Positions 149-41,504 of a stretch of DNA of 64,000 nucleotides are shown here, piece by piece. A program made the position numbers and the translations under genes. Each line of letters opens with the position of its first letter. The stretch's first letter is position 1. Below the pieces are notes generated by a model that had not been told where the DNA came from, searched no databases, and saw nothing but the letters and a program-made list of their open reading frames with translations. Origin of the DNA: a virus. The stretch is from the IMG/VR virus record IMGVR_UViG_3300029922_000039. One strand, written 5' to 3'.

Positions 149-176
149 CTATTTCTCCTGTTCTGATTCTAGTTCA

Positions 177-209
177 CAGGTAACGTAGCACGTGTCGCGA
201 CGTTACCTG
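177..209 (-). terminator. hairpin CAGGTAACGT-N13-ACGTTACCTG at the 3' end of the HAD gene
   Basis: 10-bp inverted repeat overlapping the stop codon. Related hairpins follow both ASCH genes. Confidence 0.5.
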
Positions 210-676
210 TTCAGAAGTGCAACCGCCTGAGCAGTGTGGTCCTCGGTAATCCCCGTTTCAAACGGAGTCTGCACGAGATATGGCATCAGATGCTCCATGT
301 CTGAATCGTCATCGAGAATCACGAATGCCTCAACTTCCTCGCGGTCGTATTCATCGAGCCATTTCTGGATTTCCTGCCCACGAGGGTGCGAAATCCATAG
401 GCCGCTCTTTGGGTCGCGCTCGTCCATATGTGGAGTAATCGCTATGCAATCGGCCTTTATTCCCCATTTATGCAAGCGTTCTCGGGTCTTCATCAGGCCA
501 TCTGCACGCCATGTGCTGCTCACGACTATGACGGCTCCCGTTGCGTCTGTGATCTTGTTGAGTTGGTCCACACAACAAGGCAACGCCTGTGCTCCGCTAC
601 CCGGAATCCTGTAAGGCGGTTGGTGCGAGGCCATCGGGATAATCGGGCCATCGAAATCAAGAAAGACAACTTTCAT
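203..676 (-). CDS. HAD-superfamily phosphatase-like protein (HAD domain of the type found in RNA-repair 'Swiss army knife' proteins)
   Basis: N-terminal FLDFDGP (DxDx motif), SSTWR and LDDDSD motifs. SD GAAGGGAAG before the ATG. Confidence 0.7.
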   Translation of the reverse strand: MKVVFLDFDGPIIPMASHQPPYRIPGSGAQALPCCVDQLNKITDATGAVIVVSSTWRADGLMKTRERLHKWGIKADCIAITPHMDERDPKSGLWISHPRGQEIQKWLDEYDREEVEAFVILDDDSDMEHLMPYLVQTPFETGITEDHTAQAVALLNR

Positions 677-690
677 GGTGCTTCCCTTCG

Positions 691-716
691 GGCACTGTAG
701 TGTCTATTCAACGTGG
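691..716 (-). promoter_or_regulatory. copy 1 of a conserved 26-nt upstream element (sense: CCACGTTGAATAGACACTACAGTGCC)
   Basis: Lies 14 nt upstream of the HAD start codon. Three further copies sit at 12931, 31451 and 35791. Confidence 0.5.
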
Positions 717-6540: not shown

Positions 6541-6846
6541 ATGGATAAGACTCCCACACAAGAGAAGACTTTGCGGCTGTTTAACTTCGCGGCGGTGTCT
6601 ATATTGGCAACGTTTGCGATTGGTATAGAGGTGTTTCAGTATCAATCGGATCGCGCTGATCAGTGGATGAGGATGGACGCGGCAGCTACTTTGTCGGCTC
6701 GCTCTCCCCGACTGAAGGCCCTTCGGATAAATAATGGCCACCATGGACACAGGACAATTAAGGACACCGCAGAGAATAAAGTGCGGTGGGCTTGGGGTGT
6801 TGCTCCTGGAGACGGATACCTGTACTCCGCTTGGTGGGTTAGATAG
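6541..6846 (+). CDS. hypothetical protein (one hydrophobic segment)
   Basis: First ORF after the promoter. AAGGCAAGGAA precedes the ATG. Confidence 0.5.
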   Translation: MDKTPTQEKTLRLFNFAAVSILATFAIGIEVFQYQSDRADQWMRMDAAATLSARSPRLKALRINNGHHGHRTIKDTAENKVRWAWGVAPGDGYLYSAWWVR

Positions 6847-8789: not shown

Positions 8790-8983
8790 CACATCAAGAG
8801 GCAGCTTGGCAGCATCGCCCAGATATCGAGCAAGTAGAGTTCGAACGCGCTCACCCTTACCCGTTCGCCATCGTCACAGGCAAGGCGAGCGCCACCAGTG
8901 ACACACCAGACGCACGCGCCGACCGTTCCCGCCTCATCTGGTTCGCCTTTGCCGTTGCCCTCTCTATGCTGGTCCTGTTCTAG
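8786..8983 (+). CDS. hypothetical protein with a C-terminal hydrophobic segment
   Basis: GTG start in a GTGA overlap with the previous ORF. Confidence 0.4.
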   Translation: MTHQEAAWQHRPDIEQVEFERAHPYPFAIVTGKASATSDTPDARADRSRLIWFAFAVALSMLVLF

Positions 8984-8999
8984 TCTCATATGAGACTGG
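8981..8999 (+). repeat. copy 1 of the GTCTC-N4-GAGACTGG hairpin motif
   Basis: TAGTCTC ATAT GAGACTGG followed by GATTTTGTT. Intergenic, so probably also a terminator. Confidence 0.6.
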
Positions 9000-11518: not shown

Positions 11519-11863
11519 GTGAACATCGAAGAATTGACCATTGGCGAAGCCAAGCAACTCGCGGCCATGTTTGGCAGCGTGGCGACCGCCCCAGCATCGC
11601 CCGTAGTCGATCACGGCATTCAGATAGTGATTGCTGATCGTGGTTTCGTCTACGTTGGCCGCGTCAAGACCGACTCGGAATGGGTCTATGTGCGCGATGC
11701 CCTAAACCTGCGCGTATGGGGAACAACCAAGGGCCTAGGCGAACTCGTAAAAGGTCCGCTTGCCAGCACCAAGACAGACGCAACAGGGAACATCAAGATC
11801 AGCCGCAAGGCCCTCATCGCGCTGGTGGAGGTTGAGGGGGAAGCATGGAATTCAAAACTTTAA
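11519..11863 (+). CDS. hypothetical protein
   Basis: GTG start preceded by GAAGGGAAAAACC. 114 aa. Confidence 0.5.
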   Translation: MNIEELTIGEAKQLAAMFGSVATAPASPVVDHGIQIVIADRGFVYVGRVKTDSEWVYVRDALNLRVWGTTKGLGELVKGPLASTKTDATGNIKISRKALIALVEVEGEAWNSKL

Positions 11864-12081
11864 CCCTTGACGGCTCCGGCTACGGCGACGGCGACGGCGG
11901 CGACGGCTCCGGCGACGGCTCCGGCTACGGCTACGGCTACGGCTACGGCTACGGCCCCGGCTACGGCTCCGGCGACGGCTCCGGCTACGGCGACGGCGGC
12001 GACGGCTCCGGCGACGGCTCCGGCTACGGCGACGGCGACGGCGGCGACGGCTCCGGCGACGGCTCCGGCTACGGCTTATAG
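11845..12081 (+). CDS. highly acidic Gly/Tyr/Asp/Ser repeat protein (78 aa)
   Basis: ATG preceded by GAGGGGGAAGC and overlapping the previous gene end. Built almost only from GGC/GAC/TAC/TCC codons. Confidence 0.5.
   Translation: MEFKTLTLDGSGYGDGDGGDGSGDGSGYGYGYGYGYGPGYGSGDGSGYGDGGDGSGDGSGYGDGDGGDGSGDGSGYGL
11871..12075 (+). repeat. in-frame tandem repeat (GGCTCCGGCTACGGCGACGGC... units)
   Basis: Repeated GDGSGYG-type units are visible at the DNA level. Confidence 0.8.
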
Positions 12082-12375
12082 AAGAGGCAACCATGACGCA
12101 ACACGCACGAGCCCCGCCCAGCCACCGCGAGGGCGGATAAACCCAACCAAAATAGGCGGTAGCCGAAAGGCAGAAGTAGCACCCCTGGACCGGGCACGAG
12201 TACACGAGAACGAGAACCAAACCGGGACACATCCCACGGGAGGAGTTATGGAACGGGAGCGGGAAAGCCGCTCAGGGCAGGCCGGAAACCTGCCACAAGG
12301 CCGCAAGGGTAAGCCCTCAGCTTGATAAGCATGGCGCGACCGAGGAATTTACAAATTACCCAAGGAGAGAAACCA

Positions 12376-12624
12376 ATGAGCCTACAAGCCGCCATCGAAC
12401 GCAACCGGGAACGCTGGGCAGCCAAACGGGCTGGGGAAGCCCCACAGCCAACGCAGGCCGGGTTAAACGCCTATCAGATCCGCGTGGCCGATATCCCAAC
12501 CACATACGAGGTCGCAATTGGTCTCCGTAAGCCGGTGCTGGTCGGCCAGGTTCTGCCGGCGAAGACCATCACCATTTTCGGCACGTCGAAGGAAGACGCA
12601 AAGAGACGGCACGGGATTTGCTAG
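12376..12624 (+). CDS. hypothetical protein
   Basis: ATG at 12376 preceded by AAGGAGAG. Confidence 0.5.
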   Translation: MSLQAAIERNRERWAAKRAGEAPQPTQAGLNAYQIRVADIPTTYEVAIGLRKPVLVGQVLPAKTITIFGTSKEDAKRRHGIC

Positions 12625-12681
12625 CCCGGATGTTTTACCTCATCCGTTACGCGCTCCGGCGCCGCCTCGAAAGGAGATTTC

Positions 12682-12909
12682 ATGCGCAAACGAAGCTATA
12701 GCGTTGACCCGCATTACGTAACGGTCAAGTATGCTTGCAAATGCGGCGTGTGCCTCCGGCCTATTGCAGTCGGCGAAACGGCCTGGTACTGGCCCGCTAG
12801 TCGATCTATGGATTGTTCGGGAGAGACGTGCGGCGCACAGTCGGCGCGAGAGTTTAGGGCAGCGCGGCAGGATGAAGATTTTATGTCTGCGCAGTTCTTG
12901 AGGTACTAA
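12682..12909 (+). CDS. small Cys-rich protein
   Basis: CKCGVC...C..ETC. SD AAAGGAG. Confidence 0.5.
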   Translation: MRKRSYSVDPHYVTVKYACKCGVCLRPIAVGETAWYWPASRSMDCSGETCGAQSAREFRAARQDEDFMSAQFLRY

Positions 12910-12930
12910 AATGATTTCAACCGGCGGCAC

Positions 12931-12956
12931 CGTCGTTGAATAGGCACTACGGTGCC
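12931..12956 (+). promoter_or_regulatory. copy 2 of the conserved 26-nt upstream element (CGTCGTTGAATAGGCACTACGGTGCC)
   Basis: 19 nt upstream of the ASCH-A ATG. Confidence 0.5.
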
Positions 12957-12975
12957 AAGAGAAAGAAGGATCTTG

Positions 12976-13380
12976 ATGAAAGCTTTGAGCGTAAGAGCGC
13001 CGTGGTGGTGGGCAATACTCCACGGGAAACCTATTGAAAACCGAGATTGGTACACCAACTTCCGTGGACCTGTACTCCTCCATGCAAGCAAGTTCTGGAA
13101 GGATGTAGATGTTCTTGGCGACTGGAACGATGTCCTGGACAGGGCCGAAGACGATGGGCTTGATTTCCCTAGCGATTGGCCGAAAGAAGAGATGCAAGAG
13201 AAGTCTGGATGCATCGTTGGCAAGGTCACAATTGTGGACTGTGTGCGCAGCCATCCGAGCTCGTTCTTTGTCGGCGAGTGGGGCTTTGTCTTGCGCGATC
13301 CAGTGATATTCGAGAATCCTATCCCATTCAAGGGTGCTCTCGGTTTCTTCAATGTTCCTGATGAGCTTTTAGGTAGGTAA
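12976..13380 (+). CDS. ASCH (PUA-like) domain protein, copy A
   Basis: ALSVRAPWWWAILHGKPIENRDW...LLHASK pattern. ATG at 12976 preceded by AGAAGGA. Confidence 0.65.
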   Translation: MKALSVRAPWWWAILHGKPIENRDWYTNFRGPVLLHASKFWKDVDVLGDWNDVLDRAEDDGLDFPSDWPKEEMQEKSGCIVGKVTIVDCVRSHPSSFFVGEWGFVLRDPVIFENPIPFKGALGFFNVPDELLGR

Positions 13381-13405
13381 CGTCGCGATTCACCGCTACG
13401 GTACC
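13376..13405 (+). terminator. hairpin GGTAACGTCGCG...CGCTACGGTACC
   Basis: Imperfect inverted repeat starting in the stop codon. Homologous to the hairpins at 177 and 31000. Confidence 0.45.
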
Positions 13406-13433
13406 AACACCGAACCACCAGAAAGGGAACACC

Positions 13434-13535
13434 GTGAAGTTGCTTTTGGCTCTATCCGCCCCTGAACTGATCTTTCTCGCCGCCGTCGTTGTCGTCTACA
13501 CCTACAACCTGTTTTTTGGTACGAGGGTACTATGA
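13434..13535 (+). CDS. small membrane protein (33 aa)
   Basis: GTG preceded by GAAAGGGAA. ATGA overlap with the next gene. Confidence 0.35.
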   Translation: MKLLLALSAPELIFLAAVVVVYTYNLFFGTRVL

Positions 13536-13732
13536 CCACACCGAATGCATCATGGCGCCGCCGACCGGGAGACGCCGAAGAGAATCAGGAGCCGGTCACC
13601 ATCCACCAGGAGGAACCGCGCCCCAATCGCTGGGTGTTCATCGCAGGCAATTGCCTTTTGATCGTTGTGATTGTCGTGGGCGTTCTCTGTTGCCTCTACG
13701 AAGCCGGATGCTTCGATAAGGCGGTGCGCTGA
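13532..13732 (+). CDS. small membrane protein
   Basis: Hydrophobic FIAGNCLLIVVIVVGVLCCL segment. Confidence 0.5.
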   Translation: MTTPNASWRRRPGDAEENQEPVTIHQEEPRPNRWVFIAGNCLLIVVIVVGVLCCLYEAGCFDKAVR

Positions 13733-13983
13733 TGGAACACGTTCGAGAAATTGCCAAGAGGGTGGTAGCAGAGATGGAATCCAACCCGCTCCAGCTCCAC
13801 ACGGCTATCAGGGTCAGCATGATCGATTACCGATTGGCCCTGCAAGGCCGCGGCGCGATCGGTGACGCCTATGTGTCGCGCGCCTGGGCCGTTAAGCTCG
13901 GAGCCAGTGACGAACAGATGGAAGAGAAATTCTACAAGCTCCGGCAGTTGTGGGCCGCTGGCAAACTCGGCGGGAATACCTAG
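13732..13983 (+). CDS. hypothetical protein
   Basis: 83-aa ORF. Its start overlaps the previous stop. Confidence 0.5.
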   Translation: MEHVREIAKRVVAEMESNPLQLHTAIRVSMIDYRLALQGRGAIGDAYVSRAWAVKLGASDEQMEEKFYKLRQLWAAGKLGGNT

Positions 13984-14004
13984 TCTCAATTGGGATTAGA
14001 TTTC

Positions 14005-14024
14005 TGCAAGCGTTGAGGTATAAT
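14005..14024 (+). promoter_or_regulatory. TATAAT -10 box (14019-14024) with a TGCAAGCGTT operator-like motif in the spacer
   Basis: Perfect TATAAT with a weak -35 (TTAGAT). The motif is shared with other promoters in the window. Confidence 0.5.
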
Positions 14025-14046
14025 CTGCACTGAAAGGTAAGGCAAG

Positions 14047-14169
14047 ATGCTCAAGACCCATTTCCCGAAGTTCCGCAACGACTATACGCGCAGTGACCGA
14101 CGCCGATCACAGGCCCGTGTCCGCAGAGCGCAGCGCAGGGCTAAGGCCCGCTGCTCGGAGAGAGGCTAA
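14047..14169 (+). CDS. small very basic protein (40 aa)
   Basis: ATG preceded by AAAGGTAAGGCAAG. Arg-rich. Below the track cut-off. Confidence 0.35.
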   Translation: MLKTHFPKFRNDYTRSDRRRSQARVRRAQRRAKARCSERG

Positions 14170-14171
14170 CC

Positions 14172-14765
14172 ATGGCCGGGAAAATCACCTACAACTGTGC
14201 TGTTTGTGAGATCGAGAAAAAGGCCGTCAATGGCTGGTATCTGGTCTGGGTTCTGGCGGCTTCTGGAGTCGCCGAATACAGTCTTCGCGGATGGAACGAC
14301 GAGATTGCGCGAGAAGACGAAGATGTTCTTCCGGTGTGCGGCCGAGCGCACGCGCACGTTCTTCTAGATACCTTTTTTTCTCATAAAGAACCGCTTTCCT
14401 CCTCCGCGCCTTCCGCTTCCGAATGTCCGCCTGAGTCAGTTCCGCCAACTTCTGCATGTTCATCATCGGCATTATTCCCTGCCGCTGGCGCTCATCCTCA
14501 ACCTCTTGATACCACTGCCGATGTTGCTCTCTGTTTAGAATGTGATCTGGATTCAGCTTGTATGTCGGAAGCATCTTCATCACCGGCCCATAGTCTACGT
14601 CTGTCAGCCTTTCTTTCACGACCGGACCCTCCACCAGCAGTCCAGCTTCCAGAATCTGGTCAAGCCACTCCAGATTCATCCTCGGATTACCCGCGACCCT
14701 ATCAATCCGATGCCGCGGCAGGGAGCGAAAGTGGGTCAGATCAAAATGCAGCATCAGCCCCATAA
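14172..14765 (+). CDS. hypothetical protein; only the first ~75 aa look protein-like
   Basis: MAGKITYNCAVCEIEKK...VCGRAHAH, then a Ser/Pro/Ala-rich tail that is antisense to the 14227-14835 gene. Confidence 0.35.
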   Translation: MAGKITYNCAVCEIEKKAVNGWYLVWVLAASGVAEYSLRGWNDEIAREDEDVLPVCGRAHAHVLLDTFFSHKEPLSSSAPSASECPPESVPPTSACSSSALFPAAGAHPQPLDTTADVALCLECDLDSACMSEASSSPAHSLRLSAFLSRPDPPPAVQLPESGQATPDSSSDYPRPYQSDAAAGSESGSDQNAASAP

Positions 14766-14835
14766 ACAGGCGTAGGGCTCCAGGCGATAGCCGGTCTTTG
14801 TCCGAGAGGACGCGGAATGCGTTCAGGTTGAGCAC
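14227..14835 (-). CDS. winged-helix-like DNA-binding protein, lone minus-strand gene in the plus-strand block (candidate regulator)
   Basis: LSPGALRLFMGLMLHFDL...NLEWLDQILEAGLLVE wHTH-like pattern followed by a basic coiled C-terminus. GTG start; ATG at 14763 is an alternative. Confidence 0.5.
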   Translation of the reverse strand: MLNLNAFRVLSDKDRLSPGALRLFMGLMLHFDLTHFRSLPRHRIDRVAGNPRMNLEWLDQILEAGLLVEGPVVKERLTDVDYGPVMKMLPTYKLNPDHILNREQHRQWYQEVEDERQRQGIMPMMNMQKLAELTQADIRKRKARRRKAVLYEKKRYLEERARALGRTPEEHLRLLAQSRRSIREDCIRRLQKPPEPRPDTSH

Positions 14836-14863
14836 GACTCAATTGTAGATCAGGAAGGGAAGC

Positions 14864-15415
14864 ATGAGAACTAGCAGTTTGAAGTGGTGGTGGTACGGGT
14901 TCCGGTCACAGTTCCGGTTTGAGAAGTCCGTCGATATCCCGCATCTGAAGGTGCGCTGTGCTTGCCCATGGGTGGTTGTATGCCTTTTCTGGTACTTCTG
15001 CCCGATGGACTTTAAGGCATGGCCGAACACGTATCAAACCGGCATAGATATCGCCTGGCACTGGCCATGGAAGAAGCATCTTCGCCATAAGACGTGGATG
15101 AAACACCACCCAATGCCGCCGGCCGTCTACTCTGCCATGGATCTCGTGTACCTCGGCCGGGCCACTCCCGGCATGGACCGCAACGACCAGAGGTTTGTGG
15201 GCCAGACGGTCAAGAATCTTGTTGCGCAGGGTCCGGCCTGTGGGCACACCTACTTCATCGCCTCCTGCCCCGGATGCGCGCGCAAGGCGCTCTACTTCGC
15301 CACGCACCAGACGCGAGAGATCAAGGCGCTTACTCAGCAGGTCAAGGAGTTGGGTGGAAAACCAGTCTCATTTGAGACTAAGAAACTGGAGGGCGGCAAT
15401 GCCAACACCAATTGA
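14864..15415 (+). CDS. hypothetical protein (Trp-rich N-terminus)
   Basis: 183-aa ORF with SD AGGAAGGGAAGC. The C-terminal half is the more convincing part. Confidence 0.4.
   Translation: MRTSSLKWWWYGFRSQFRFEKSVDIPHLKVRCACPWVVVCLFWYFCPMDFKAWPNTYQTGIDIAWHWPWKKHLRHKTWMKHHPMPPAVYSAMDLVYLGRATPGMDRNDQRFVGQTVKNLVAQGPACGHTYFIASCPGCARKALYFATHQTREIKALTQQVKELGGKPVSFETKKLEGGNANTN
15362..15380 (-). repeat. copy 5 of the hairpin motif, reverse orientation (CCAGTCTC ATTT GAGACTA on the plus strand)
   Basis: Inside the 14864-15415 ORF. Confidence 0.55.
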
Positions 15416-15644
15416 AACTGCGCTTGAATCAGTTGACTGGAAAGAACTTTCTCCCGACGAAATCAGCACACGCGAAGATGCGTACAAGGCCGGAGGGCTA
15501 CCCTACGCCACGCACGAGGGAACACTGAAGATTGGCGAGATTGAAATCGAGTGCGCCAGACTCAATACCGGGCAGACGGTCATAGTCGCCTTGGATCTGG
15601 AGAAGAGGCTCGGGAGTACTCTGAATGGCGGCCCCCATGACTAG
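15399..15644 (+). CDS. hypothetical protein
   Basis: ATG at 15399 preceded by GGAGGG. Confidence 0.5.
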   Translation: MPTPIETALESVDWKELSPDEISTREDAYKAGGLPYATHEGTLKIGEIEIECARLNTGQTVIVALDLEKRLGSTLNGGPHD

Positions 15645-15735
15645 CCTTTCATGGTCGGACTTGATCTGGCTGCCGATCCTGATCGGACTCGTGAGCCTCA
15701 CCCGCGTAACTTGGGATCTATGGAGGAAGAAGTGA
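15637..15735 (+). CDS. small membrane protein (32 aa)
   Basis: MTSLSWSDLIWLPILIGLVSL... Overlaps the previous stop. Below the track cut-off. Confidence 0.3.
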   Translation: MTSLSWSDLIWLPILIGLVSLTRVTWDLWRKK

Positions 15736-15908
15736 GGCGAGAACCTTTCAGGGAGAGGAACAAGGGGATCCGGTCCGAGGTCTTGGCGAACGCGGTTTCG
15801 GAATTAACCGAGCGCGTCACCGGCTGCCCGTGCCACGTGGAGTCGTGCTATAACGGCACTTGGTACGTCATGCGCGAGTATGCGCCCAACCAATTTGAGG
15901 AAGTGTAA
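15720..15908 (+). CDS. hypothetical protein
   Basis: In-frame ATG at 15720 (MEEEVRREPF...). Start uncertain. Confidence 0.4.
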   Translation: MEEEVRREPFRERNKGIRSEVLANAVSELTERVTGCPCHVESCYNGTWYVMREYAPNQFEEV

Positions 15909-15925
15909 AAGGGAGAGAGGAATCC

Positions 15926-16261
15926 ATGAAGTTAGCAGTCGCAGTTTTTGCACTGGCAATGGCCAGTATCGCAACGGGGCAGACGGTCAAGCCTGATATG
16001 CCGGCGCAATGGACACAACAAAGCGCGCTCTCTACAGCATCTGGACCACCGACTACTCCTACGGTGTGCAGTAAATATAAGCACAGGGAAGCCACAGCAG
16101 GGCACTGCGCCAACACTTGTGGCGTAGGAGAAACGGTCTGTACAGCCGAGTGTCTATACGTACCTGCATCGGATGCCGCCTGCGTTGACAACATCCACCT
16201 TCTCACAGAAGAGGAGTGGCAAAAGCTGTCCGAACGCATTATAGTGCTCGACCAGACATAG
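15926..16261 (+). CDS. secreted Cys-rich protein (signal peptide)
   Basis: MKLAVAVFALAMASIATGQ signal-like N-terminus. SD GGGAGAGAGGAA. Confidence 0.55.
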   Translation: MKLAVAVFALAMASIATGQTVKPDMPAQWTQQSALSTASGPPTTPTVCSKYKHREATAGHCANTCGVGETVCTAECLYVPASDAACVDNIHLLTEEEWQKLSERIIVLDQT

Positions 16262-16351
16262 CTGACATTATGGGGGTGACTCAGTGGCGCGTGTATGCCG
16301 TTCTAAGGAAAAACAAATTAGGTAGGTCAAGCACAGGAAGGCACACTAGGA

Positions 16352-16690
16352 TCAAACCACCAAATACGGAAGCTGAACCGTGTTTAGAGCTGCCTCGAAG
16401 GGGCTGATTGACCACGCCACATAGCCACATAGCTCACAACAAACGAGCGCCACTGACTCATTGGTAGTGTAGTCATACTCTCTCTGAATCAGCGGCGCAT
16501 TCAAGCTATGGCCGCACGGACTGCTCATAACGCCGCTGAGTTCGCTAAAAGGGTGTGTTGAGAAATAATCGACTCCTGTAGCCTGTTGCGGCTCGACAAT
16601 GCCTCCCGGAACAGCCTGAGTCCAGAACCCGCCGCGACCTCCCGGCGACGGGTAGAGCGTCCCAATGGACCATCGATTTGCCTGAGTCAT
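16352..16690 (-). CDS. hypothetical protein
   Basis: ATG at 16690 preceded by AGAGGGGTGA. Confidence 0.45.
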   Translation of the reverse strand: MTQANRWSIGTLYPSPGGRGGFWTQAVPGGIVEPQQATGVDYFSTHPFSELSGVMSSPCGHSLNAPLIQREYDYTTNESVALVCCELCGYVAWSISPFEAALNTVQLPYLVV

Positions 16691-16703
16691 CAATCACCCC
16701 TCT

Positions 16704-17147
16704 TTACGAGCAAGTGTAAGCCACCAAGGCTTCCGCGAGAGTCTTCTGGATATACATCTCCGCATCCTCCCCTGCGCTATCCGCCCAGGACAGTAACGGC
16801 AGGGCCGCTTCTTCGGGCACGGTCACGCGCACGGAGATATCCCCGTTGGGCAACTTCTTGAGCCCTTGGGGTCCCAGCTTGACGGCCGCCTGCACCTCGG
16901 CATCGGTGAACACCTTCGGCTTCTTGGCTTCATCGAGCGCGGCGGTGAGACGCAAGATCTCGGCATCGCGCGCGGCAATCGTCTCTACGCCGTCCTTGAT
17001 CTGGCCCAAGAGGCGGTCCACGTCCTGTTGGGTGGTTGAGATGAGTTCGCCTACGGTCATGCCGTAGACCGTCATTGCTTCGTCTCCGACGACTACCGGC
17101 TGCTCCGGCGCCGGACTGGTTTGCGCTTCGTTGCTGCTTTTCGCCAT
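16704..17147 (-). CDS. hypothetical protein
   Basis: 147-aa ORF with SD GAGGAAACC. Confidence 0.5.
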   Translation of the reverse strand: MAKSSNEAQTSPAPEQPVVVGDEAMTVYGMTVGELISTTQQDVDRLLGQIKDGVETIAARDAEILRLTAALDEAKKPKVFTDAEVQAAVKLGPQGLKKLPNGDISVRVTVPEEAALPLLSWADSAGEDAEMYIQKTLAEALVAYTCS

Positions 17148-17317
17148 GGTTTCCTCTTCTTGGACTTGCGTGCTGTGTTGAGCGCGGCGGCTACCGCCTG
17201 GCGCTGCGCGGTCTTCTTGCCGAACTTCCGCTTGGTCCTGGCGTACTGCGGACCTGTGTGCGCCTCGCGGATATTCGCGCTGATCGTTTCTCTGTCACTG
17301 CCCGGCTTCATTGGCAT
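17093..17317 (-). CDS. small very basic protein
   Basis: SD GGAGG. Lys/Arg-rich (…RTKRKFGKKTAQRQAVAAALNTARKSKKRK…). Confidence 0.5.
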   Translation of the reverse strand: MPMKPGSDRETISANIREAHTGPQYARTKRKFGKKTAQRQAVAAALNTARKSKKRKPWRKAATKRKPVRRRSSR

Positions 17318-17333
17318 TGTCGGCCTCCGGAGT

Positions 17334-17999
17334 CTACTTTGCCAGCATCCCTAACTGCCAGATTACCTGCCATCCTTGCTTTACTGTACCCCAGAAGGTG
17401 CGCTTCTTTGGGGTGTCGATGATCTGCTCGAAGTGATGCGTGACCTTGGCCGTGTCCGCGGTGACGCTGGCGGTGCTGGCCATCGACTTTTGGATATCTG
17501 CCAAGGTCAAACCGATCTGAGGGTTGCTGATTACAATGTCTGCATCCTTCGCCGTGGCCGTCAGTTGGCCCAGGAGAGGCTGGGCGGAGGCGATGGTTGA
17601 TTGGGCTGTACCGATGGCTTGCGTCGCGGCATTGGCCGTTCCCGTAGTCGCAGCAAGTACCCTATCCACGCCGTTGAGCGTTGTATCGCTATGACCTGCC
17701 AATCGAGAAATCTCTGCGTCAAGATTTCGAGCATATCCGTCATACTTTGCAAGTTGCTTGTCTTCATGGGCAATCACCATATCAGCATGAACGGTAGTGG
17801 ACTTGAGAGCGAGGAGCAACTTGTCTGTCTCGGCTATTGTCCCGTTCATGCCTGAGAACTGTCTCGTCGCATCCGAAACGCGATCCGCGGCCGCGATGAG
17901 GTGAGAGGCCATGCCAAAGCACCCCCAAACGCCAATCCCCACCGCCAAAGTGACGGTGAGGACTAGGACAAGTGTTGCGATCTGTATCGCGCGCGCCAT
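17334..17999 (-). CDS. membrane-anchored protein (N-terminal TM, Ala/Thr/Gln-rich helical body)
   Basis: IQIATLVLVLTVTLAVGIGVWGCFG TM segment. Confidence 0.5.
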   Translation of the reverse strand: MARAIQIATLVLVLTVTLAVGIGVWGCFGMASHLIAAADRVSDATRQFSGMNGTIAETDKLLLALKSTTVHADMVIAHEDKQLAKYDGYARNLDAEISRLAGHSDTTLNGVDRVLAATTGTANAATQAIGTAQSTIASAQPLLGQLTATAKDADIVISNPQIGLTLADIQKSMASTASVTADTAKVTHHFEQIIDTPKKRTFWGTVKQGWQVIWQLGMLAK

Positions 18000-18343
18000 C
18001 AGATCATCTTCGCAACGGCCTTGATCGAAGGATCGGCCGCAATAGCCTTGACGGTATTGATGACATTGATATCCAATCCGGCATCAGCCAGTTTGGCTTC
18101 GGCTGCCGCATCGCCAGCATGGAGAACGGCAATCAGTTCACCGATCAGTGCGTATCCTGCCTTCTCCACGGTTACGGCCAAGGGACCATAGACGGGGAGG
18201 GCGGCAGAAACGGTTTCCACTACTTCGGCGCTACCTTCTGCGGCGGTGGCGGAGGCTTCGATCTTCGGCGTGTCGGCGAGAATCCGCTGCACGGCTGTCG
18301 CGAAGAAGTGCCCAAGGGACTTGAATGGCTGAGTGAGGTTCAC
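17999..18343 (-). CDS. hypothetical protein
   Basis: GTG at 18343 preceded by GGAG. The upstream part of the track ORF looks non-coding. Confidence 0.45.
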   Translation of the reverse strand: MNLTQPFKSLGHFFATAVQRILADTPKIEASATAAEGSAEVVETVSAALPVYGPLAVTVEKAGYALIGELIAVLHAGDAAAEAKLADAGLDINVINTVKAIAADPSIKAVAKMI

Positions 18344-18353
18344 GGTTTGCTCC

Positions 18354-18629
18354 TTATTGCTGGTTGCTGGGTGAGTTGGTTCCGGGGGACGGACGATTGA
18401 GCATGCGGACTGCGACGATGCCTCCGACGATAGCGACTCCAATAAGCTTGTGGATGGCTGGGGCGCTGAAGTCGAGTTGCCCGTTGTTGTTGTAGGCTGC
18501 GACGACGGCATTACCGGCTGCGGCGATTGCCCCGCCTTCAAAAGCGACGAAGTAACGGTTGCTCCGAATAGAGAGCCAAAGGCCCTTGCAAATAGCGACG
18601 GCATCAGACAGATCCTCGTTCATAGTCAC
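18354..18629 (-). CDS. small membrane protein (holin-like topology)
   Basis: Hydrophobic segments AIAAAGNAVVAAY and LIGVAIVGGIVAV. ATG at 18623 is an alternative start. Confidence 0.45.
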   Translation of the reverse strand: MTMNEDLSDAVAICKGLWLSIRSNRYFVAFEGGAIAAAGNAVVAAYNNNGQLDFSAPAIHKLIGVAIVGGIVAVRMLNRPSPGTNSPSNQQ

Positions 18630-18645
18630 TCGCTTTCTTCTTCGT

Positions 18646-18776
18646 CTAGCAGTTTACCGGGCCACTCCCCGGAGGTGGATCTCCGGGCACCCACGGGCGC
18701 ATTTCTGGGGTGGGTTCTGGCGCGGGAAGTGGCGCTTCTGGTTCAGGAGATGGGATCAAAGGTGTTTCGTCTGCCA
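18646..18776 (-). CDS. small Pro-rich protein (43 aa)
   Basis: MADETPLIPSPEPEAPLPAPEPTPE... Starts 4 nt after the upstream stop. Confidence 0.3.
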
Positions 18777-18779
18777 TGT

Positions 18780-19196
18780 TCACTCCGATGCTTTCTGGTA
18801 TACCTGATGCTGCGATGATACTCCCGTTGTGGGTGATGCGATATAGGCAACTGGCAAGCCGAAATAATGGCGGATTGCAGGACCCCAGACCGCATTGATC
18901 CCGATCATGGCAACGATAAGCGAGGCGAGGGCAACAAGAGCCTTCCCTGTCCACTTAACTGTGTCGAGGATCAGGTCGAACTTCTGTAGAATCAGGGCAA
19001 CCAGGGTCACGAGCGAGGGATTATCGCCGTCTCCATCGATAAGGATTCTGTGGATCTTGTCCAATTTAGGGTCTGCCACTTCCACCCTCCAATCGGTCAA
19101 TGCCCTCACATCTGAAGTTACGGTCGCCATCCCCTTCTCTAGCTCCCTGATTCGCCCGTGTTCGTCGTGCTCTGGATCGCCTATTCTCGATGGCAT
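18780..19196 (-). CDS. membrane protein (C-terminal TM)
   Basis: SD AAGGGGA. GKALVALASLIVAMIGINAVWG segment. Confidence 0.5.
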   Translation of the reverse strand: MPSRIGDPEHDEHGRIRELEKGMATVTSDVRALTDWRVEVADPKLDKIHRILIDGDGDNPSLVTLVALILQKFDLILDTVKWTGKALVALASLIVAMIGINAVWGPAIRHYFGLPVAYIASPTTGVSSQHQVYQKASE

Positions 19197-19256
19197 CCGA
19201 ATCCCCTTAAAAGAAAATTACTACAAAACGTCAGGCACCGTAGCGGTTATCTAGCT

Positions 19257-21848
19257 TCAGTTCCAGATCGTATATCGATACACGCTCGTGTCGGAGGCAC
19301 CGCATTGTTCTTTGAAACTTGCACCGCTTGATGGTGTATTCATATATGGTTGCGCAGGTGTTCCTCCGCTTGTTTCCATTGTGACTAAAACATCTGATCC
19401 AGTGATAAAGTTAGTGTTTGAAATAAGAATATTTCCACCAGCAGTGCAGGTGAACGTTCCGCGACGGGCTGAGGACACTGTAGCTGTATTTCCGGATATA
19501 TTCCCAGAACCATCAATAACAGCAACAATTGTTCCAGCGCCATTTCCGAAATTAGTTCCTCCGGTTCCGCTACCATTATCGTTGTTGAGAAAAACAGATG
19601 ACGTTCCACCATAAGAATTAAGAATCAGATTATTTCCGGCTGATGATCTTATAGTCGGTCCAAATTGAGATCCGGAGGCATAATTCCCAGAGTATATATT
19701 CAACGATGATCCAGTGCCGATAGTAACATGACCGGAAGTTACTGAATTAAGATTTGTCACATTTCCTAATCCGTCAATAAACGCCGCATTGACACCTCCA
19801 GCTACTCCCCAAAATGCTTTATTAGATGTAGAACCGGAACTGCTATAAGTGAATCCTAGTGCTGTCGAATTATAAGGCGCTGAATTTACACCGATAGATT
19901 CATAGTTTTGATACCCACCACCATTCAGATTGGGCATATAAATGCTTTTTACTGGATTCGAATTACTAAATGCCTCATTGAATGTTTCGGTACAAGAATC
20001 TAATCCATTTGAAGTCTTTGTACATTGTTCAAATGGTCCTTCGCTAAAATAAGTCTGTGTATTGCCAACTATAGAACCAGAAAAATCATTTTTGTAAACA
20101 GTTGTGTCATTCCATGCGTTTGAAAGCGTTGTACCGTTCGCAAAAACTAATCTAACAGAAGAAGGTAATGCGAACCCTGAGCCTGACTCAGAAAATTGTA
20201 TTCCATATTGCGAACCATAAGAATATACTGTCCCAGAGAAAAAATCATTTTGTCCGTTATAAACATAGATATTAGGATAAGAAGAACTAGGCGAAATAGA
20301 CTGAATACCTTGATATATATTTTGTAAATTAAATGGGATAGACGGATTAGTACTATTATTTACATCACATATAGCAGAACTACCCGCCGAACCAAATTGC
20401 ACCGAGTCGAAAATATTAGTTGTAGCTAATTGACTTCCACTCAAACCGTGCACATAGAGACTACATTTAGTGCTGGTCGCACCAGCACCGAGAGAACCTG
20501 TTACAGAGATATCGCCGCCTGTCATCCTAACAGAACCGCAACCCGCTAATTCTATTCCCGAGTAGCCATTGGCTTCAAATTGCGAACCACCTTGAATCCA
20601 TATATCGCCGCTACCAGAACATAGATATCCTTGCTTAGAGTTACCAGCTACAAGAACATTTTCTAAATACAAATTATTGACGCCAGTGCTAATAATTCCT
20701 GCGTCCGTTCCATTCCATATGCCTATACTCGTTAGCCTTTGGTTACCTCCCCCAGAAATAGAAACAACAGGATTTGCTCCACTCATGCCGTTATTTGTAT
20801 GGCAAAGTCCCCAACCAACACCGCATGTATTTCCATCGATATCTATCCAAGCAATTACTACACCGCTCCCAACCGTTATAAGCGGCGTATTTATTGCAGC
20901 ATTATTTGCAGCCTCTATACTTACAGGATTATGACCGTAACTAGGCGACATTCCTATAACTGTATCGCCTCCAGTTAAAATAATACCTTTTAAGACAGTG
21001 TATATTCCTGACTGAATAAACTGAATTGATTGTCCTAATCCTGATGTAGTTAGAACGGTAGTTCCAGTTTGACTGAAACCATTAGAACCGTCCACCGTGC
21101 AAGTTCCTGTTGTGTTCGAAAGTAAACAAGCTTGCAATTTTGAAACCCAATCGTTTCCCGCATACTCTCCTGAATAGTGGATACCATTTGTCGTGGGAGC
21201 CACGACGGTGCCTGAGAAAGTAGCACTCGTGCCGTTGAGGGGGCCTGCGAGTGTGCCACCCGCCAACGGCAAGTACGGCCCTCCGGCTGCTGGCGGCAAT
21301 GTCCACGCTGCGCCGTTGCATGTGTAAATCTCGCCTGTCACTTTGTTGACGTAAATCTGTCCTGCGTTGTTCGCATTGCAGGTTAAGCCTGTAGGCGCAC
21401 CTGTTCCCGATATGCTTCCAGAACCCGTGGATGCTGTCCATCCATATGAGTATGTGATTGTTCCGTTGATGGCGACTTGGACTATGTATGCTCCCGTCGC
21501 GACGTAGACCGTGGCGTTCCCGTAACTGTTTGTCGCGTAGGGCTGCGATAGTGGTACAGTAAGCCCAGGATCGGCGTAGATGGTCGCCTGCGGATAGCAG
21601 GGGATGCCGCTGGCAGTGTACGGGCAGACCGTGAGGCGCGCGTTGGCCGCTGGAGTTCCGCTGGTCGTCACCCACTGGCCGCTGATGGCCGCGCCGACTT
21701 GCGCGAAGGCGCTACTCGCCGAAGCTAGGATCAGGATCGAAGCCGCGAGGAATATCCGGTTGAAAATGCCGAGACCCTTTGTCCTGGTTGCACCGAGGGT
21801 GGCATATTGAGTTGATTGGCTGTCCGTTCTCGTCGATAACGCGATCAT
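19257..21848 (-). CDS. tail-fibre / tailspike-like beta-helix protein with a signal-peptide-like N-terminus
   Basis: ATG at 21848 preceded by GGGAGAAGAG. YLPLAGGTLAGPLNG fibre motif. Repetitive G/S/N/T-rich beta-helix-like body. Confidence 0.6.
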   Translation of the reverse strand: MIALSTRTDSQSTQYATLGATRTKGLGIFNRIFLAASILILASASSAFAQVGAAISGQWVTTSGTPAANARLTVCPYTASGIPCYPQATIYADPGLTVPLSQPYATNSYGNATVYVATGAYIVQVAINGTITYSYGWTASTGSGSISGTGAPTGLTCNANNAGQIYVNKVTGEIYTCNGAAWTLPPAAGGPYLPLAGGTLAGPLNGTSATFSGTVVAPTTNGIHYSGEYAGNDWVSKLQACLLSNTTGTCTVDGSNGFSQTGTTVLTTSGLGQSIQFIQSGIYTVLKGIILTGGDTVIGMSPSYGHNPVSIEAANNAAINTPLITVGSGVVIAWIDIDGNTCGVGWGLCHTNNGMSGANPVVSISGGGNQRLTSIGIWNGTDAGIISTGVNNLYLENVLVAGNSKQGYLCSGSGDIWIQGGSQFEANGYSGIELAGCGSVRMTGGDISVTGSLGAGATSTKCSLYVHGLSGSQLATTNIFDSVQFGSAGSSAICDVNNSTNPSIPFNLQNIYQGIQSISPSSSYPNIYVYNGQNDFFSGTVYSYGSQYGIQFSESGSGFALPSSVRLVFANGTTLSNAWNDTTVYKNDFSGSIVGNTQTYFSEGPFEQCTKTSNGLDSCTETFNEAFSNSNPVKSIYMPNLNGGGYQNYESIGVNSAPYNSTALGFTYSSSGSTSNKAFWGVAGGVNAAFIDGLGNVTNLNSVTSGHVTIGTGSSLNIYSGNYASGSQFGPTIRSSAGNNLILNSYGGTSSVFLNNDNGSGTGGTNFGNGAGTIVAVIDGSGNISGNTATVSSARRGTFTCTAGGNILISNTNFITGSDVLVTMETSGGTPAQPYMNTPSSGASFKEQCGASDTSVYRYTIWN

Positions 21849-22080
21849 CTCTTCTCCCTGAAGTCCGACCTTGAGCGTGCTCAAAGGTGCATTCACTAAG
21901 CGATACTGGTTTTCCGCAGAGGCTACAAAAACCTGACTGACGTTGCCACATGAGCATTTTCCGCTGCTTATAAGCGGCTCGCCCTGCGTCGTTGTTGAGG
22001 CAGATTTCACGCCCCCCTACCTTCTTTACCGCGGTCGGGTTTCGATCGGGCGGCTTGAACCGCTTTCTCACGAGCCTCAC
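21712..22080 (-). CDS. HNH endonuclease
   Basis: CSLCGKPV...FEHAQGRTSGRRDD...CHPRCNQDKGS HNH motifs. GTG at 22080 preceded by GGAGG; TTG at 22104 is an alternative. Confidence 0.7.
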   Translation of the reverse strand: MRLVRKRFKPPDRNPTAVKKVGGREICLNNDAGRAAYKQRKMLMWQRQSGFCSLCGKPVSLSECTFEHAQGRTSGRRDDRVIDENGQPINSICHPRCNQDKGSRHFQPDIPRGFDPDPSFGE

Positions 22081-25933: not shown

Positions 25934-26448
25934 GCCGTCAATCTCCTCTCGTCGCAGTCTCGTTTGAGACTGGATTCTTCCTGATACGCCCCGCAGAAGT
26001 CCCGCATCCGCTGGCTCCAGTAGGCCGGTTCAGTATCCATCAGGGCCTTCCACCCTCCCAGGCTGCGCAACGCGCGCGCCATAGGCTCAGGAATGGCCGG
26101 GACAGGCACCTCTAGCACTTCATCTCCGCGCCGGTACACATAGGGCTCAAGCCGAATGCCGCCCTCTGGCGCTTCCCTGACGTGCCGCTGGACGATCTCG
26201 GTCACGGTTGCCCACGCCTTCATCGCCGGAGACGGATCAGGGACGTGCTGAAGGCCGGCGCAATCTCTGATCCTGCTGACGGTACAATCGTAACGTCCCT
26301 TGCTGATACTGATTGCCTTCTTCACTGCCGCCAAGAAGGCTTCCGGGCCGACAGCATCCACGACCTCGGCTAGCAACTCGACTCGCAACTTCGCCGCGGC
26401 ATCGGACTCCTGCTGGTTGACCGGAAACATCTCTTTCACCATGACCAT
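25930..26448 (-). CDS. hypothetical protein (start uncertain)
   Basis: First ATG after the upstream stop. ATG at 26508 is an alternative. Confidence 0.45.
   Translation of the reverse strand: MVMVKEMFPVNQQESDAAAKLRVELLAEVVDAVGPEAFLAAVKKAISISKGRYDCTVSRIRDCAGLQHVPDPSPAMKAWATVTEIVQRHVREAPEGGIRLEPYVYRRGDEVLEVPVPAIPEPMARALRSLGGWKALMDTEPAYWSQRMRDFCGAYQEESSLKRDCDERRLTA
25955..25973 (+). repeat. copy 2 of the hairpin motif (CAGTCTC GTTT GAGACTGG)
   Basis: Lies inside a minus-strand coding region. Confidence 0.55.
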
Positions 26449-30958: not shown

Positions 30959-30988
30959 ACAATACACGGAGGATGAGACATTTTGCAA
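30959..30988 (-). promoter_or_regulatory. candidate integrase promoter (TTGCAA, 18-nt spacer, TATTGT) overlapped by AACGCTTGCA
   Basis: Read on the minus strand. Same hexamers and spacing as the minus promoter at 43272-43301. Confidence 0.45.
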
Positions 30989-30999
30989 GCGTTAAAGCA

Positions 31000-31028
31000 G
31001 GTGACGTAGCGTATATCGCTACGTTACC
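31000..31028 (-). terminator. hairpin GGTAACGTAGCG-ATATA-CGCTACGTCACC after ASCH-B
   Basis: 11 of 12 bp inverted repeat starting in the stop codon. Confidence 0.55.
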
Positions 31029-31431
31029 TACCTAAAAGCTCATCCGGCACATCGAAGAAGCCAGGAGCGCCCTTGAACGGAATCCTGTGTTCCAGATCGA
31101 ACAAGATAGGATCACGGAGCACAAATCCGAACTTACCGACAAAGAATGCACTCGGATGTTCGGTCACACAGTCCACGATCTCAACAGAGCCGACAATCAA
31201 TCCGCCCGTCTCGCGAAGAAGAGAAAAGCTCGGATCAGGCCAGTCCAACCCGTCTTTCCTAACCATCGCCCTGATGCTCTCGTAGTCAAAGTCGATCTCC
31301 GTCCGATTCCACCATTTGCTTGCGTGGAGTAGAAATCGCCCCCGGAACTTCGTAGACCAATCCCGGTTCTCGACGGGCTTTCCATGGATGATCGCCCACC
31401 ACCACGGCGCTCTTACGCTCAAAGCTTTCAT
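31024..31431 (-). CDS. ASCH (PUA-like) domain protein, copy B
   Basis: Paralog of 12976-13380. ATG at 31431 preceded by AGAAGGA. Confidence 0.65.
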   Translation of the reverse strand: MKALSVRAPWWWAIIHGKPVENRDWSTKFRGRFLLHASKWWNRTEIDFDYESIRAMVRKDGLDWPDPSFSLLRETGGLIVGSVEIVDCVTEHPSAFFVGKFGFVLRDPILFDLEHRIPFKGAPGFFDVPDELLGR

Positions 31432-31450: not shown

Positions 31451-31476
31451 GGCACCGTGGCGCCTATTCAGCGACG
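31451..31476 (-). promoter_or_regulatory. copy 3 of the conserved 26-nt upstream element (sense: CGTCGCTGAATAGGCGCCACGGTGCC)
   Basis: 19 nt upstream of the ASCH-B ATG. Confidence 0.5.
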
Positions 31477-35339: not shown

Positions 35340-35393
35340 TCCTTAGTTCCTCTCTTTCTTGCGTTGGAGTCGTAGCCCGTATCGTTACGGTGC

Positions 35394-35774
35394 CTACGCC
35401 GCGAGACCTTTCCAGGACAACCAGCGGCGCTGTAGTTCCGCTTTTGCCTCTGGGGATTTCAACTTGTTCAAGCAGCTTTGCGAGAACTTCGGGAACAGAT
35501 CATCGTTGATGTAATCCCACAGGCATTCATAACGCCGAGAGTCGCAAAAGAACGCCCAGGCAATCTCAGCGCAGACCGCGCAAGTGTGGTTGGTTGCCCA
35601 CTTTGAGCTTCCTGCTTCCTCTCGAAAACGGGCTTTTTCATGCGGTTCTCCCGCAGGAATGGTGCGACCACATTCACAACATTGCATCGGCGTTTTGAAC
35701 GTCGCTGTATACATCGCAAAATCGTTGTCGCCAAAGTCATGTCCTGAACTCAGGCAAACTCCACAATTGCTCAT
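35394..35774 (-). CDS. Cys-rich hypothetical protein
   Basis: ATG at 35774 preceded by GGGAGGGATGAA. Several CxxC pairs. Confidence 0.5.
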   Translation of the reverse strand: MSNCGVCLSSGHDFGDNDFAMYTATFKTPMQCCECGRTIPAGEPHEKARFREEAGSSKWATNHTCAVCAEIAWAFFCDSRRYECLWDYINDDLFPKFSQSCLNKLKSPEAKAELQRRWLSWKGLAA

Positions 35775-35790: not shown

Positions 35791-35816
35791 GGCACCCTAG
35801 TGCCTATTCAACGACG
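35791..35816 (-). promoter_or_regulatory. copy 4 of the conserved 26-nt upstream element (sense: CGTCGTTGAATAGGCACTAGGGTGCC)
   Basis: Starts right after the KTSC stop codon, 16 nt upstream of the ATG at 35774. Confidence 0.5.
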
Positions 35817-36032
35817 TTACAGCGGCTTGTACGGCCTCTGCGGCTTGATGACCGCGTGCAGGTGCTTGCCGGGGCTGTCTGCGTTCTCGAAGTCCCGCGC
35901 GTCCTCTTCCGTGCAGCCCAAATATTGGCCTTGGTGCCCACTGTGAAAGGAAATTGTGATGGTCTGGTCGTCCGGGTTGAATGTTGCACCCTTGATGTTG
36001 CTGCTGCTTTTCAAATTCAGAGCCTGTTCCAT
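35817..36032 (-). CDS. KTSC-domain protein
   Basis: SSSNIKGATFNPDDQTITISFHSGHQGQYLGCTEEDARDFENADSPGKH follows the KTSC pattern. Confidence 0.6.
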   Translation of the reverse strand: MEQALNLKSSSNIKGATFNPDDQTITISFHSGHQGQYLGCTEEDARDFENADSPGKHLHAVIKPQRPYKPL

Positions 36033-41485: not shown

Positions 41486-41504
41486 CAGTCTCAAACGAGA
41501 CTGG
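41486..41504 (+). repeat. copy 3 of the hairpin motif (CAGTCTC AAAC GAGACTGG)
   Basis: Immediately next to the RecT stop codon, followed by TTATTTCTCTT. Confidence 0.55.

Follow-up and report, generated by a model that had tools for sequence, protein, structure and literature searches.

A candidate portable junction around small accessory genes in phages of peat soil

Introduction

Phage genomes are mosaic, but only for a handful of systems, chiefly the promoter-early stem-loops (PeSLs) of T4-like myoviruses, have the sequences been recognised at which accessory genes change places. How a single small gene may be set between resident genes and expressed there is the question raised by a stretch of viral DNA of 64,000 nucleotides (the IMG/VR record IMGVR_UViG_3300029922_000039; hereafter, the window), in which a 26-nt element precedes four small genes, namely a HAD phosphatase, the ASCH-like paralogues ASCH-A and ASCH-B, and a cysteine-rich open reading frame (ORF), and in which a related hairpin closes three of them. 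The window was recognised by exact-protein look-ups as a part of the ~88-kb genome of an SU10-like temperate phage from peat metagenomes, with a probable host among the Acidobacteriota. An earlier note on this DNA had described the element and the hairpins, and had compared the former with the promoters of single-subunit phage RNA polymerases (RNAP) or, alternatively, with an RNA leader hairpin. Here, the 26-nt element and the 3' hairpin are tentatively read as diverged copies of one portable junction between small accessory genes of temperate (probably Acidobacteriota) phages, which would combine a C(UNCG)G-capped hairpin with a ribosome-binding leader and would double as a short homology for cassette exchange. 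A probability of about 0.45 is assigned to this reading.

Results

The element in the window and in other phages

The element of ASCH-A, CGTCGTTGAATAGGCACTACGGTGCC, recurs with three mismatches before ASCH-B and with one mismatch before the cysteine-rich ORF, while its 20-nt core TGAATAGRCRCYANRGTGCC adds a copy before the HAD gene (691-710, minus strand), giving four matches in the window versus 0.09 expected, a number reached in none of 100 shuffled sequences. The distance from the element to the ATG amounts to 19 nt for both ASCH genes, 16 nt for the cysteine-rich ORF (ATG at 35774) and 14 nt for HAD, so that the range of 14-19 nt reported in the earlier note holds together with its coordinates. 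All four copies are intergenic, within strings of co-oriented genes, and a purine-rich Shine-Dalgarno (SD) sequence precedes the ATG downstream of each of them; leaders related to that of ASCH-A, AAGAGAAAGAAGGATCTTG, come after the element in other phages too. The related hairpins beginning in the stop codons of HAD, ASCH-A and ASCH-B were likewise found in place, with the TAA stop situated inside AGGTAACGT in all three (folding z-scores in Table 1). The occurrence of more copies in the rest of the genome, raised in the same note, was not borne out in the additional ~20 kb flanking the window, represented by L037 and L042 (here and below, L-numbers are the labels of the compared contigs and sequences); with them, ~95% of the ~88 kb is covered, as calculated from coordinates, ~2.7 kb between the portal and head genes lying outside. 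Further copies were found elsewhere, in other phages.

The core stands in the same context (stop codon, element, SD, ATG) in the IMG/VR and JGI contigs L008, L009, L010/L062, L057, L153, L161, L167, L172 and L127, in the contiguous L058 and L059, in two short arrays (L056 and L060), in the contig L020 of a Terracidiphilus metagenome-assembled genome, and at two chromosomal sites of Telmatobacter bradus DSM 23630 (6704-6727 and 7538-7561 of L015, from NZ_CP184532.1), which lie in a prophage. The scan of the bacterial genome collection (596 Gb, with a pattern of ~33 bits) returned 26 matches, i.e., at or below chance by our own estimate of ~140, and the context was shared only by L015 and L020, both phage-like; thus, the element is neither a repeat of host chromosomes nor a promoter in common use by the hosts.

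Throughout the family of ~20 copies, a co-oriented upstream ORF ends 2-100 nt before the element, no copy occupies a divergent junction, and the start codon follows at 13-21 nt, with a separate SD in between. The core is kept at 18-20 of the 20 positions beside otherwise dissimilar cargo and flanks and in phages with unrelated structural modules, those of ~40 kb included. The cargo behind it comprises a HAD_SAK_2 phosphatase, the two ASCH paralogues, the cysteine-rich ORF, an RNA ligase, a Lar-like protein, a C5 DNA methylase and several ORFans. Since the head module of L010/L062 (portal/MuF/scaffold) is unrelated to that of the SU10-type window phage, a dedicated phage-encoded recognition factor is unlikely. 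The earlier observation of the same boundary elements wrapping different cargo is hereby extended to unrelated phage contigs, to a prophage, and to presence and absence in relatives.

The downstream boundary is conserved as well. The 3' motif TA(A/G)-G(C/T)A(C/A)CGT(C/A)GCGA(Y)AC...CTAC was found after 9 of the 14 aligned cassettes, TA(A/G)G(C/T)A(C/A)CGTCGCGA forming the end of these cargo ORFs, and the exact TAGGCACCGTCGCGA closes at least 11 further ORFs of IMG/VR. This motif and the 5' element are related as direct repeats (CGTCG-CGAYACGCR-CTAC versus CGTCG-YTGAATAGGCR-CTAC), and the GGCACCGTCG of the motif is also the inverted complement of CTACGGTGCC in the 5' element. In L167 and in L060, the latter being an array of stop-junction-SD-ATG units, both halves are fused in a single junction between consecutive ORFs, e.g., TAG-GCACCGTCGTGACAGATACAACGC-TGGCGCTGCGGTGCC-SD-ATG, so that the two, 5' element and 3' hairpin, represent variants of a common junction. 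The full junction begins with the stop codon of the upstream ORF inside GG(C/T)A(C/A)CGTCG. Between this and CTACGGTGCC is a core that varies, being YTGAATAGGCR in the 5' type and CGAYACGCR or the like in the 3' type, and CTACGGTGCC leads to a purine-rich SD leader (AAGAAAGAAGGA-like) and the ATG.

The 16-mer TAGGC(A/G)CT(A/G)CGGTGCC recurs in other phage groups (L129, L132, L150, L151 and others; L122, L136, L143, L144). In low-GC phage contigs it forms a perfect terminator-like hairpin followed by a run of seven T, and in contigs of ~44% GC it lies in the spacer of a TTGACA...GATAGT promoter, in a PeSL-like arrangement. These settings show the capabilities of the hairpin, not homology; L135 and most of the 74 matches to the 16-mer were rejected as chance or unrelated hairpins.

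Gain, loss and exchange of cassettes

The homology between the two ASCH cassettes spans exactly 12931-13405 and does not go beyond it; the element, the leader, the first 15 codons, and the last ~30 nt with the hairpin are nearly identical, and the middle is alike at ~60-65%. In L062, an element, a 220-aa ORF and a 3' hairpin stand directly after the stop codon of a MuF-like gene, whereas the same site is a plain spacer in its relatives L063, L066, L068 and L073, at 75-80% protein identity, and the motif was found in none of 59 relatives. L153 and L161 have the upstream flank and the element in common, and L161, compared with L153, has ~458 nt inserted directly after GGTGCCAAGA, a stretch that starts with the ASCH leader and the codons MKALSVRAP; at 2210-2740 of L161, an ASCH leader with the first ~9-17 codons (MKALSVRAP...HGKPVEN) is fused to an unrelated ORF, which shows recombination inside the conserved 5' module. 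In relatives syntenic with the window phage, the small KTSC gene has DnaB as its immediate downstream neighbour, while the window has the cysteine-rich cassette and a 41-aa ORF between them, and no element was found in 21 kb of the relatives L219, L221 and L222. The empty site for ASCH-A was undefinable, since the DNA past the L223 homologue of the 678-aa protein is unrelated. As to the position of ASCH-B, it is occupied in L219 (11709-12032) by an Acb2/Tad1-like anti-defence gene, in a hypervariable stretch between a PP-binding gene and the integrase.

RNA structure of the element and the favoured explanation

At the RNA level, the inner stem GGCRC/GUGCC closes a UACG or UGCG loop, i.e., a C(UNCG)G tetraloop, and the loop variants mostly stay within UNCG. 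In three of the four window copies, the inner hairpin is characterised by dG of -8.4 to -11.1 kcal/mol and a pairing probability of 0.57-0.97 in 90-nt contexts. An outer hairpin, GGCACCGTCGT...ACTACGGTGCC, is possible for the ASCH-A element taken with 12926-12930; as a conserved feature of the 5' elements, the outer pairing of the left and right arms was rejected, with 42% of cells paired. No match at the gathering score of Rfam 15 was obtained over the whole window.

We infer from this arrangement an RNA-level role and a recombination route, as follows. The cassettes, being co-directional within existing operons, would be transcribed by read-through, and GGCRC-U(A/G)CG-GUGCC in the mRNA would fold as a very stable C(UNCG)G-capped hairpin just 5' of an unstructured SD. 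Such a hairpin might insulate the translation start of the cargo from the upstream sequence and might also protect RNA ends, while the 3' copy would rebuild the hairpin-plus-SD arrangement for the resident downstream gene. The same 20-45 nt, recurring at many gene boundaries, could act as a short recombination homology, so that cargo could be inserted, replaced, duplicated or fused there, the phage possessing a Bet/RecT-type protein and exonuclease.

A number of points weigh against the portable junction. The HAD copy is unable to form the inner hairpin (dG -0.8), and no two-sided covariation was found across 20 copies; the inner stem is paired in 99% of their cells, the sole variable pair being A-U or G-U (13:7), but this value is partly a matter of ascertainment, as most alignment columns were fixed by the search patterns. 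When the 5' element is cut short, its minimum free energy fold is inconsistent between copies, and a model of hairpin plus SD alone leaves the conserved TGAATA ahead of the hairpin unexplained. With UGCUUU behind it, and next a sigma-70-like promoter of the integrase, the ASCH-B hairpin could be a real terminator, and the element itself may contain a promoter. The indels of L062 and L161 have right-hand boundaries that are not at the element, i.e., recombination is not always element-to-element, and homologous or microhomology recombination is therefore favoured over a site-specific mechanism. Of the RNA leader hairpin GGCAC-N4-GUGCC suggested previously, the stable tetraloop and the A-U/G-U exchange stand, while two-sided covariation is missing and the HAD copy stays unfolded; as a modelled structure, it is plausible though unproven, and it fits better than a T7-type promoter.

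Promoter and other readings of the junction

The comparison with single-subunit RNAP promoters (T7/SP6/K11/Syn5-type) is close to refuted. T7-like promoters have a ~23-bp consensus from -17 to +6, with AT-rich -4 to -1 positions and an initiating G, and the length of ~20-26 nt fits; CACTA and GGCAC in the element resemble what we take to be the K11, SP6 and Syn5 consensus sequences, but with TACG for TATA, and a start inside the element would keep the SD in the 5' untranslated region. However, no RNAP or sigma domain was found in the 91 window proteins (scanned versus PHROG and Pfam), in agreement with the earlier note, or among the genes called in L037 and L042 (via precomputed Pfam). Only four copies exist in the genome examined, all before small accessory genes and none ahead of a major operon, and the syntenic relatives lack the element, which is carried by unrelated ~40-kb phages and a prophage. 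Since it travels between unrelated phage types, one dedicated polymerase common to all of them is implausible. The classical moron, in which the 5' element would be a promoter for the host RNAP with an alternative sigma factor or activator, and the 3' hairpin a terminator, the cargo being expressed independently of the operon, e.g., from the prophage, is unlikely. In its favour are cargo typical of moron and anti-defence genes (Lar, DNA methylase, RNA ligase, ASCH, HAD), at least two cassettes (cysteine-rich and L062) as extra genes between neighbours adjacent in relatives, strict conservation extending to the 'loop' and the upstream TGAATA, and the strong ASCH-B hairpin with its UGCUUU. Against it, the sigma-70 scan was silent at three of the four copies, and the 9/12 match TTAACA-18-TACAGT over the HAD copy is at chance level (10 matches found versus 10.0 expected); the -35 and -10 hexamers of sigma-70 promoters are spaced by 16-18 nt and precede the SD of the transcript, and with the SD and ATG only 13-21 nt away, TTGAAT as a -35 box would put the -10 box and the start on or after them. 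Sigma-54 promoters carry GG and GC elements exactly 10 nt apart (TGGCAC-N5-TTGC) and start ~12 nt downstream, whereas GG and GC stand 9 nt apart in GGCACTACGGTGCC, GG is replaced by GA in the HAD copy, and such a start would strip the conserved SD from the transcript. Inspection by hand and scans led to the rejection of an ECF-type promoter along with the other promoter readings, the grounds being the spacing, the missing factors and the position of the SD. The host-type promoters of these phages appear to be canonical, as suggested by TTGCAA-N18-TATTGT, read by eye at 30959-30988 (minus strand) just upstream of the integrase and downstream of the ASCH-B hairpin, which is likely a sigma-70-type integrase promoter and is kept in L219 (~12600-12640) as TTGCAA-N17-TATAAT. 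As for termination, an intrinsic terminator is a G+C-rich hairpin with a U-tract directly behind it, whereas none of the 3' hairpins is followed by a T-run or appears in the terminator scan, and this reading was rejected for them; being devoid of U-tracts and placed before essential co-oriented genes, they are unlikely to terminate efficiently, with ASCH-B as a possible exception. DnaB after the cysteine-rich cassette and the scaffold gene after the L062 cassette have no visible promoter. The lack of copies at divergent junctions also argues against the moron.

An operator at which a protein with specificity for this DNA or RNA sequence would co-regulate the accessory genes, comparable to stoperators or SAS/ESAS, is improbable: conservation of sequence and not of compensatory pairs, the fixed orientation close to start codons, the half-site-like arms GGYAMCGTMG and CTACGGTRCC, and a precedent in mycobacteriophages (PMC3203893) speak for it, but an element moving among unrelated phages would hardly have a common regulator unless host-encoded, only ~2 context-matched copies, both phage-like, are present in the 596 Gb of bacterial genomes, and the syntenic relatives are wholly without it. 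It is equally doubtful that the junction has no function of its own and is a hitch-hiking remnant of the recent duplication and horizontal spread of one ancestral gene boundary. The paralogy of ASCH-A and ASCH-B, the ASCH fusion in L161, and several upstream flanks (GTAACAACGC) common to different contigs would fit such a remnant; the core kept where cargo and flanks are otherwise dissimilar and the structural modules of the phages unrelated, the constant orientation and distance to the SD and ATG, and the loops held mostly to UNCG would not. Hairpin-directed or site-specific recombination sites, integron attC-like or IS200/IS605/REP-like, at which a recombinase acting on single-stranded DNA would move circular cassettes, are very improbable. 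Such sites would account for the stop codon within the left arm, the oriented and array-forming elements (L060, L056), the 3' hairpins that resemble hybrids with mismatched arms, as expected from site-by-site exchange, the C.T mismatch at the same stem position in several copies, and the tyrosine integrase adjoining ASCH-B. However, the three indels have no one fixed boundary position, with two right ends off the element; the elements of ~30 nt are far below attC size and lack RYYYAAC/GTTRRRY cores; the arms are non-complementary in many copies; the cassettes are scattered in unrelated phages with no linked recombinase; and genes of the HUH/TnpA or IntI type were not found in the window, where the integrase was not scored against an IntI-specific model. 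There is also a slim chance that the junctions are recombination and expression sites of an as yet undescribed, phage-borne 'mini-integron-like' cassette system, in which promoter-less accessory and anti-defence genes would move as units among unrelated phages of one host phylum. The hairpin-forming ~30-45 nt would then be recognised by a dedicated recombinase, of host or phage, acting on single-stranded DNA in its folded state, or else by a transcription or RNA-processing factor of a non-canonical kind.

Features of the window and its further content

The coordinates of the junction elements and of their cargo are collected in Table 1.

Table 1. Junction elements, hairpins and cargo ORFs of the window
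Feature	Coordinates	Strand	Remarks
5' junction element, ASCH-A cassette	12931..12956	+	pattern match; RNA fold
Purine-rich SD leader AAGAGAAAGAAGGATCTTG	12957..12975	+	identical in ASCH-B
Cargo ORF ASCH-A, 134 aa, ASCH-like, PHROG 3193	12976..13380	+	TAA stop 13378-13380 within 3' element
3' junction element and imperfect hairpin, ASCH-A, GGTAACGTCGCG-ATTCAC-CGCTACGGTACC	13376..13405	+	z -2.43
5' junction element, HAD cassette, CCACGTTGAATAGACACTACAGTGCC	691..716	-	inner hairpin broken
Cargo ORF HAD phosphatase, 157 aa	203..676	-	Pfam HAD_SAK_2
3' hairpin, HAD cassette, ACAGGTAACGTCGCGACACGTGCTACGTTACCTGT	176..210	-	TAA stop in left arm; z -4.35
5' junction element, ASCH-B cassette, CGTCGCTGAATAGGCGCCACGGTGCC	31451..31476	-	pattern match
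Cargo ORF ASCH-B, 135 aa, diverged paralogue of ASCH-A	31024..31431	-	both ends nearly identical to those of ASCH-A
3' hairpin, ASCH-B, AGGTAACGTAGCGATATACGCTACGTCACCT	30999..31029	-	strongest of the set; z -6.90
5' junction element, cysteine-rich cassette	35791..35816	-	directly after TAA stop of KTSC gene (35817-35819)
Cargo ORF, cysteine-rich, 126 aa	35394..35774	-	no family match; absent from syntenic relatives
Degenerate 3' element TAGGCACCGTAACGATACGGGCTACGACTCC, then SD of 41-aa ORF	35366..35396	-	new in this analysis; z -1.86
Partial copy, right arm only, CCGCTACGGTGCC	19234..19247	-	just past stop of tail-fibre gene

The tail-fibre gene that ends beside the partial copy (19257-22010, minus strand), with a K1-lyase_C-like C-terminus, has a G+C content of 47-50%, clearly below its surroundings, which suggests a module replacement. 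The tyrosine integrase at 29780-30934 matches a phage integrase family of generic kind and runs in the same direction as the adjoining ASCH-B cassette. Among the further products identified with PHROG and Pfam are the Bet/RecT annealing protein and exonucleases, as well as tail fibre, Lar, CSD and HTH proteins. The contigs that match the window proteins (e.g., Ga0302275_10000108) are of 87.7-88.0 kb, come from peat metagenomes and carry SU10-type portal and adaptor genes. A near-identity DNA search with the window positions 12000-20000 versus 50,697 phage records and the DnaB-based search of IMG/VR gave no match and no relatives, respectively, and the protein searches gave distant matches only.

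Several other features of this phage were observed. The DnaB helicase (32538-35174, minus strand) is split by an intein carrying a homing endonuclease domain of the LAGLIDADG type, while the close relatives P0004 and P0006-P0008 are intein-free. The 3239-aa polyvalent protein (ddrB-ParB, AAA_34; 44781-54500, minus strand) has versions of 3403-3646 aa in relatives; one such version contains an intein as well as an ART-PolyVal domain. A small gene at 11845-12081 (plus strand) is built nearly entirely of 12-nt tandem repeats coding Gly/Ser/Asp/Tyr (SGDGYG), and a similar gene is present in the unrelated L058 and L059. The second repeat family of the window comprises the palindromes (C)AGTCTC-N4-GAGACT(G) at 8981-8998, 25955-25972, 41486-41503 and 50294-50311, three of which are intergenic at operon borders and one is within the gene of the 3239-aa protein; three were flagged by the scan as terminator-like, and they could be operators or bidirectional terminators. 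The left arms of L037 (88-kb type) and L038 (125-kb type) are identical over at least 10.7 kb and diverge completely from 10726 onward; a junction element was rejected as the divergence point, the break being ~250 nt past the HAD cassette, inside the next gene.

Discussion

The junction works most like the PeSLs of T4-like myoviruses, i.e., composite intergenic motifs running from the upstream stop codon via a stem-loop to the SD and start codon, with a strong consensus sigma-70 early promoter and a stem-loop shown to terminate, which occur ~50 times per 170-kb lytic genome and recombine with each other into encapsidated mini-circles (Arbiol et al. 2010, PMC2839356; Comeau et al. 2014, PMC4122927). 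Alike are the order of stop codon, stem-loop, SD and start codon, the small accessory genes and ORFans behind it in plastic regions, and the bracketing of genes by repeats, with indels and replacements bounded by the motif (L062 versus its relatives, L161 versus L153, the window versus L219/L221). In contrast to the PeSLs, the junction has no sigma-70 geometry and its hairpins no U-tracts, it is present in ~4 copies per 88-kb temperate genome, and its core is far more strictly conserved and common to unrelated phage types. It thus departs from the PeSLs in the promoter, and it has features in common with morons, SAS/ESAS and integron cassettes but belongs to none of these classes.

In the moron concept of Hendrix and Juhala for lambdoid and other temperate phages, an extra gene is said to bring its own promoter and a factor-independent terminator. 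The junctions share with it the single extra genes between genes adjacent in relatives (the cysteine-rich and L062 cassettes), the cargo of lysogen-benefit and anti-defence type and the conserved signals on both flanks, while a recognisable promoter or U-tract terminator was not found at the junctions, and the geometry argues against both. The SAS of Cluster K mycobacteriophages are 13 bp long, lie 3-7 bp from the start codon at the SD position, in 11-19 copies per genome, and together with the ESAS are restricted to one phage cluster, staying with gene families, with a suspected role in translation initiation (Pope et al. 2011, PMC3203893). Both systems consist of asymmetric repeats in one orientation just before the starts of non-structural genes, sometimes with the upstream stop inside and with an imperfect inverted repeat adjoining, and are virtually absent from host genomes; unlike the SAS, the element is set 13-21 nt ahead of the start codon, the SD being distinct from it, is present in four copies and moves with cassettes across unrelated phages.

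Integron cassettes are promoter-less ORFs expressed by read-through, whose mRNA hairpins affect downstream translation; their attC sites are of 55-140 nt, with R''/L''/L'/R' boxes and extrahelical bases, and integrons need IntI and attI and have precise cassette boundaries. The promoter-less ORFs, the imperfect hairpin at or in the stop codon and the ORF-hairpin arrays are similar here, whereas the elements of ~30 nt with the arms GGYAMCGTMG/CTACGGTRCC have no attC boxes and their indel boundaries vary. The REP/BIME sequences number hundreds per host chromosome, where RAYT transposases mobilise them, and they stabilise the upstream mRNA. The junctions resemble them as short imperfect palindromes right after stop codons within operons, transcribed and possibly acting at the RNA level, but are essentially absent from bacterial chromosomes outside prophage-like contexts.

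Described here is a strictly conserved junction without the look of a promoter, set around genes of anti-defence and RNA-repair type in phages of peat soil that are uncultivated and whose virion modules are unrelated. If the portable junction holds true, it would provide a naturally occurring 'plug-and-play' module for translation and insulation, by which a promoter-less gene would work wherever it has landed, and the same DNA would serve to move the gene. The two copies in the cultured Telmatobacter bradus DSM 23630 bring the question within reach of experiment, in a phylum for which phage genetics hardly exists.

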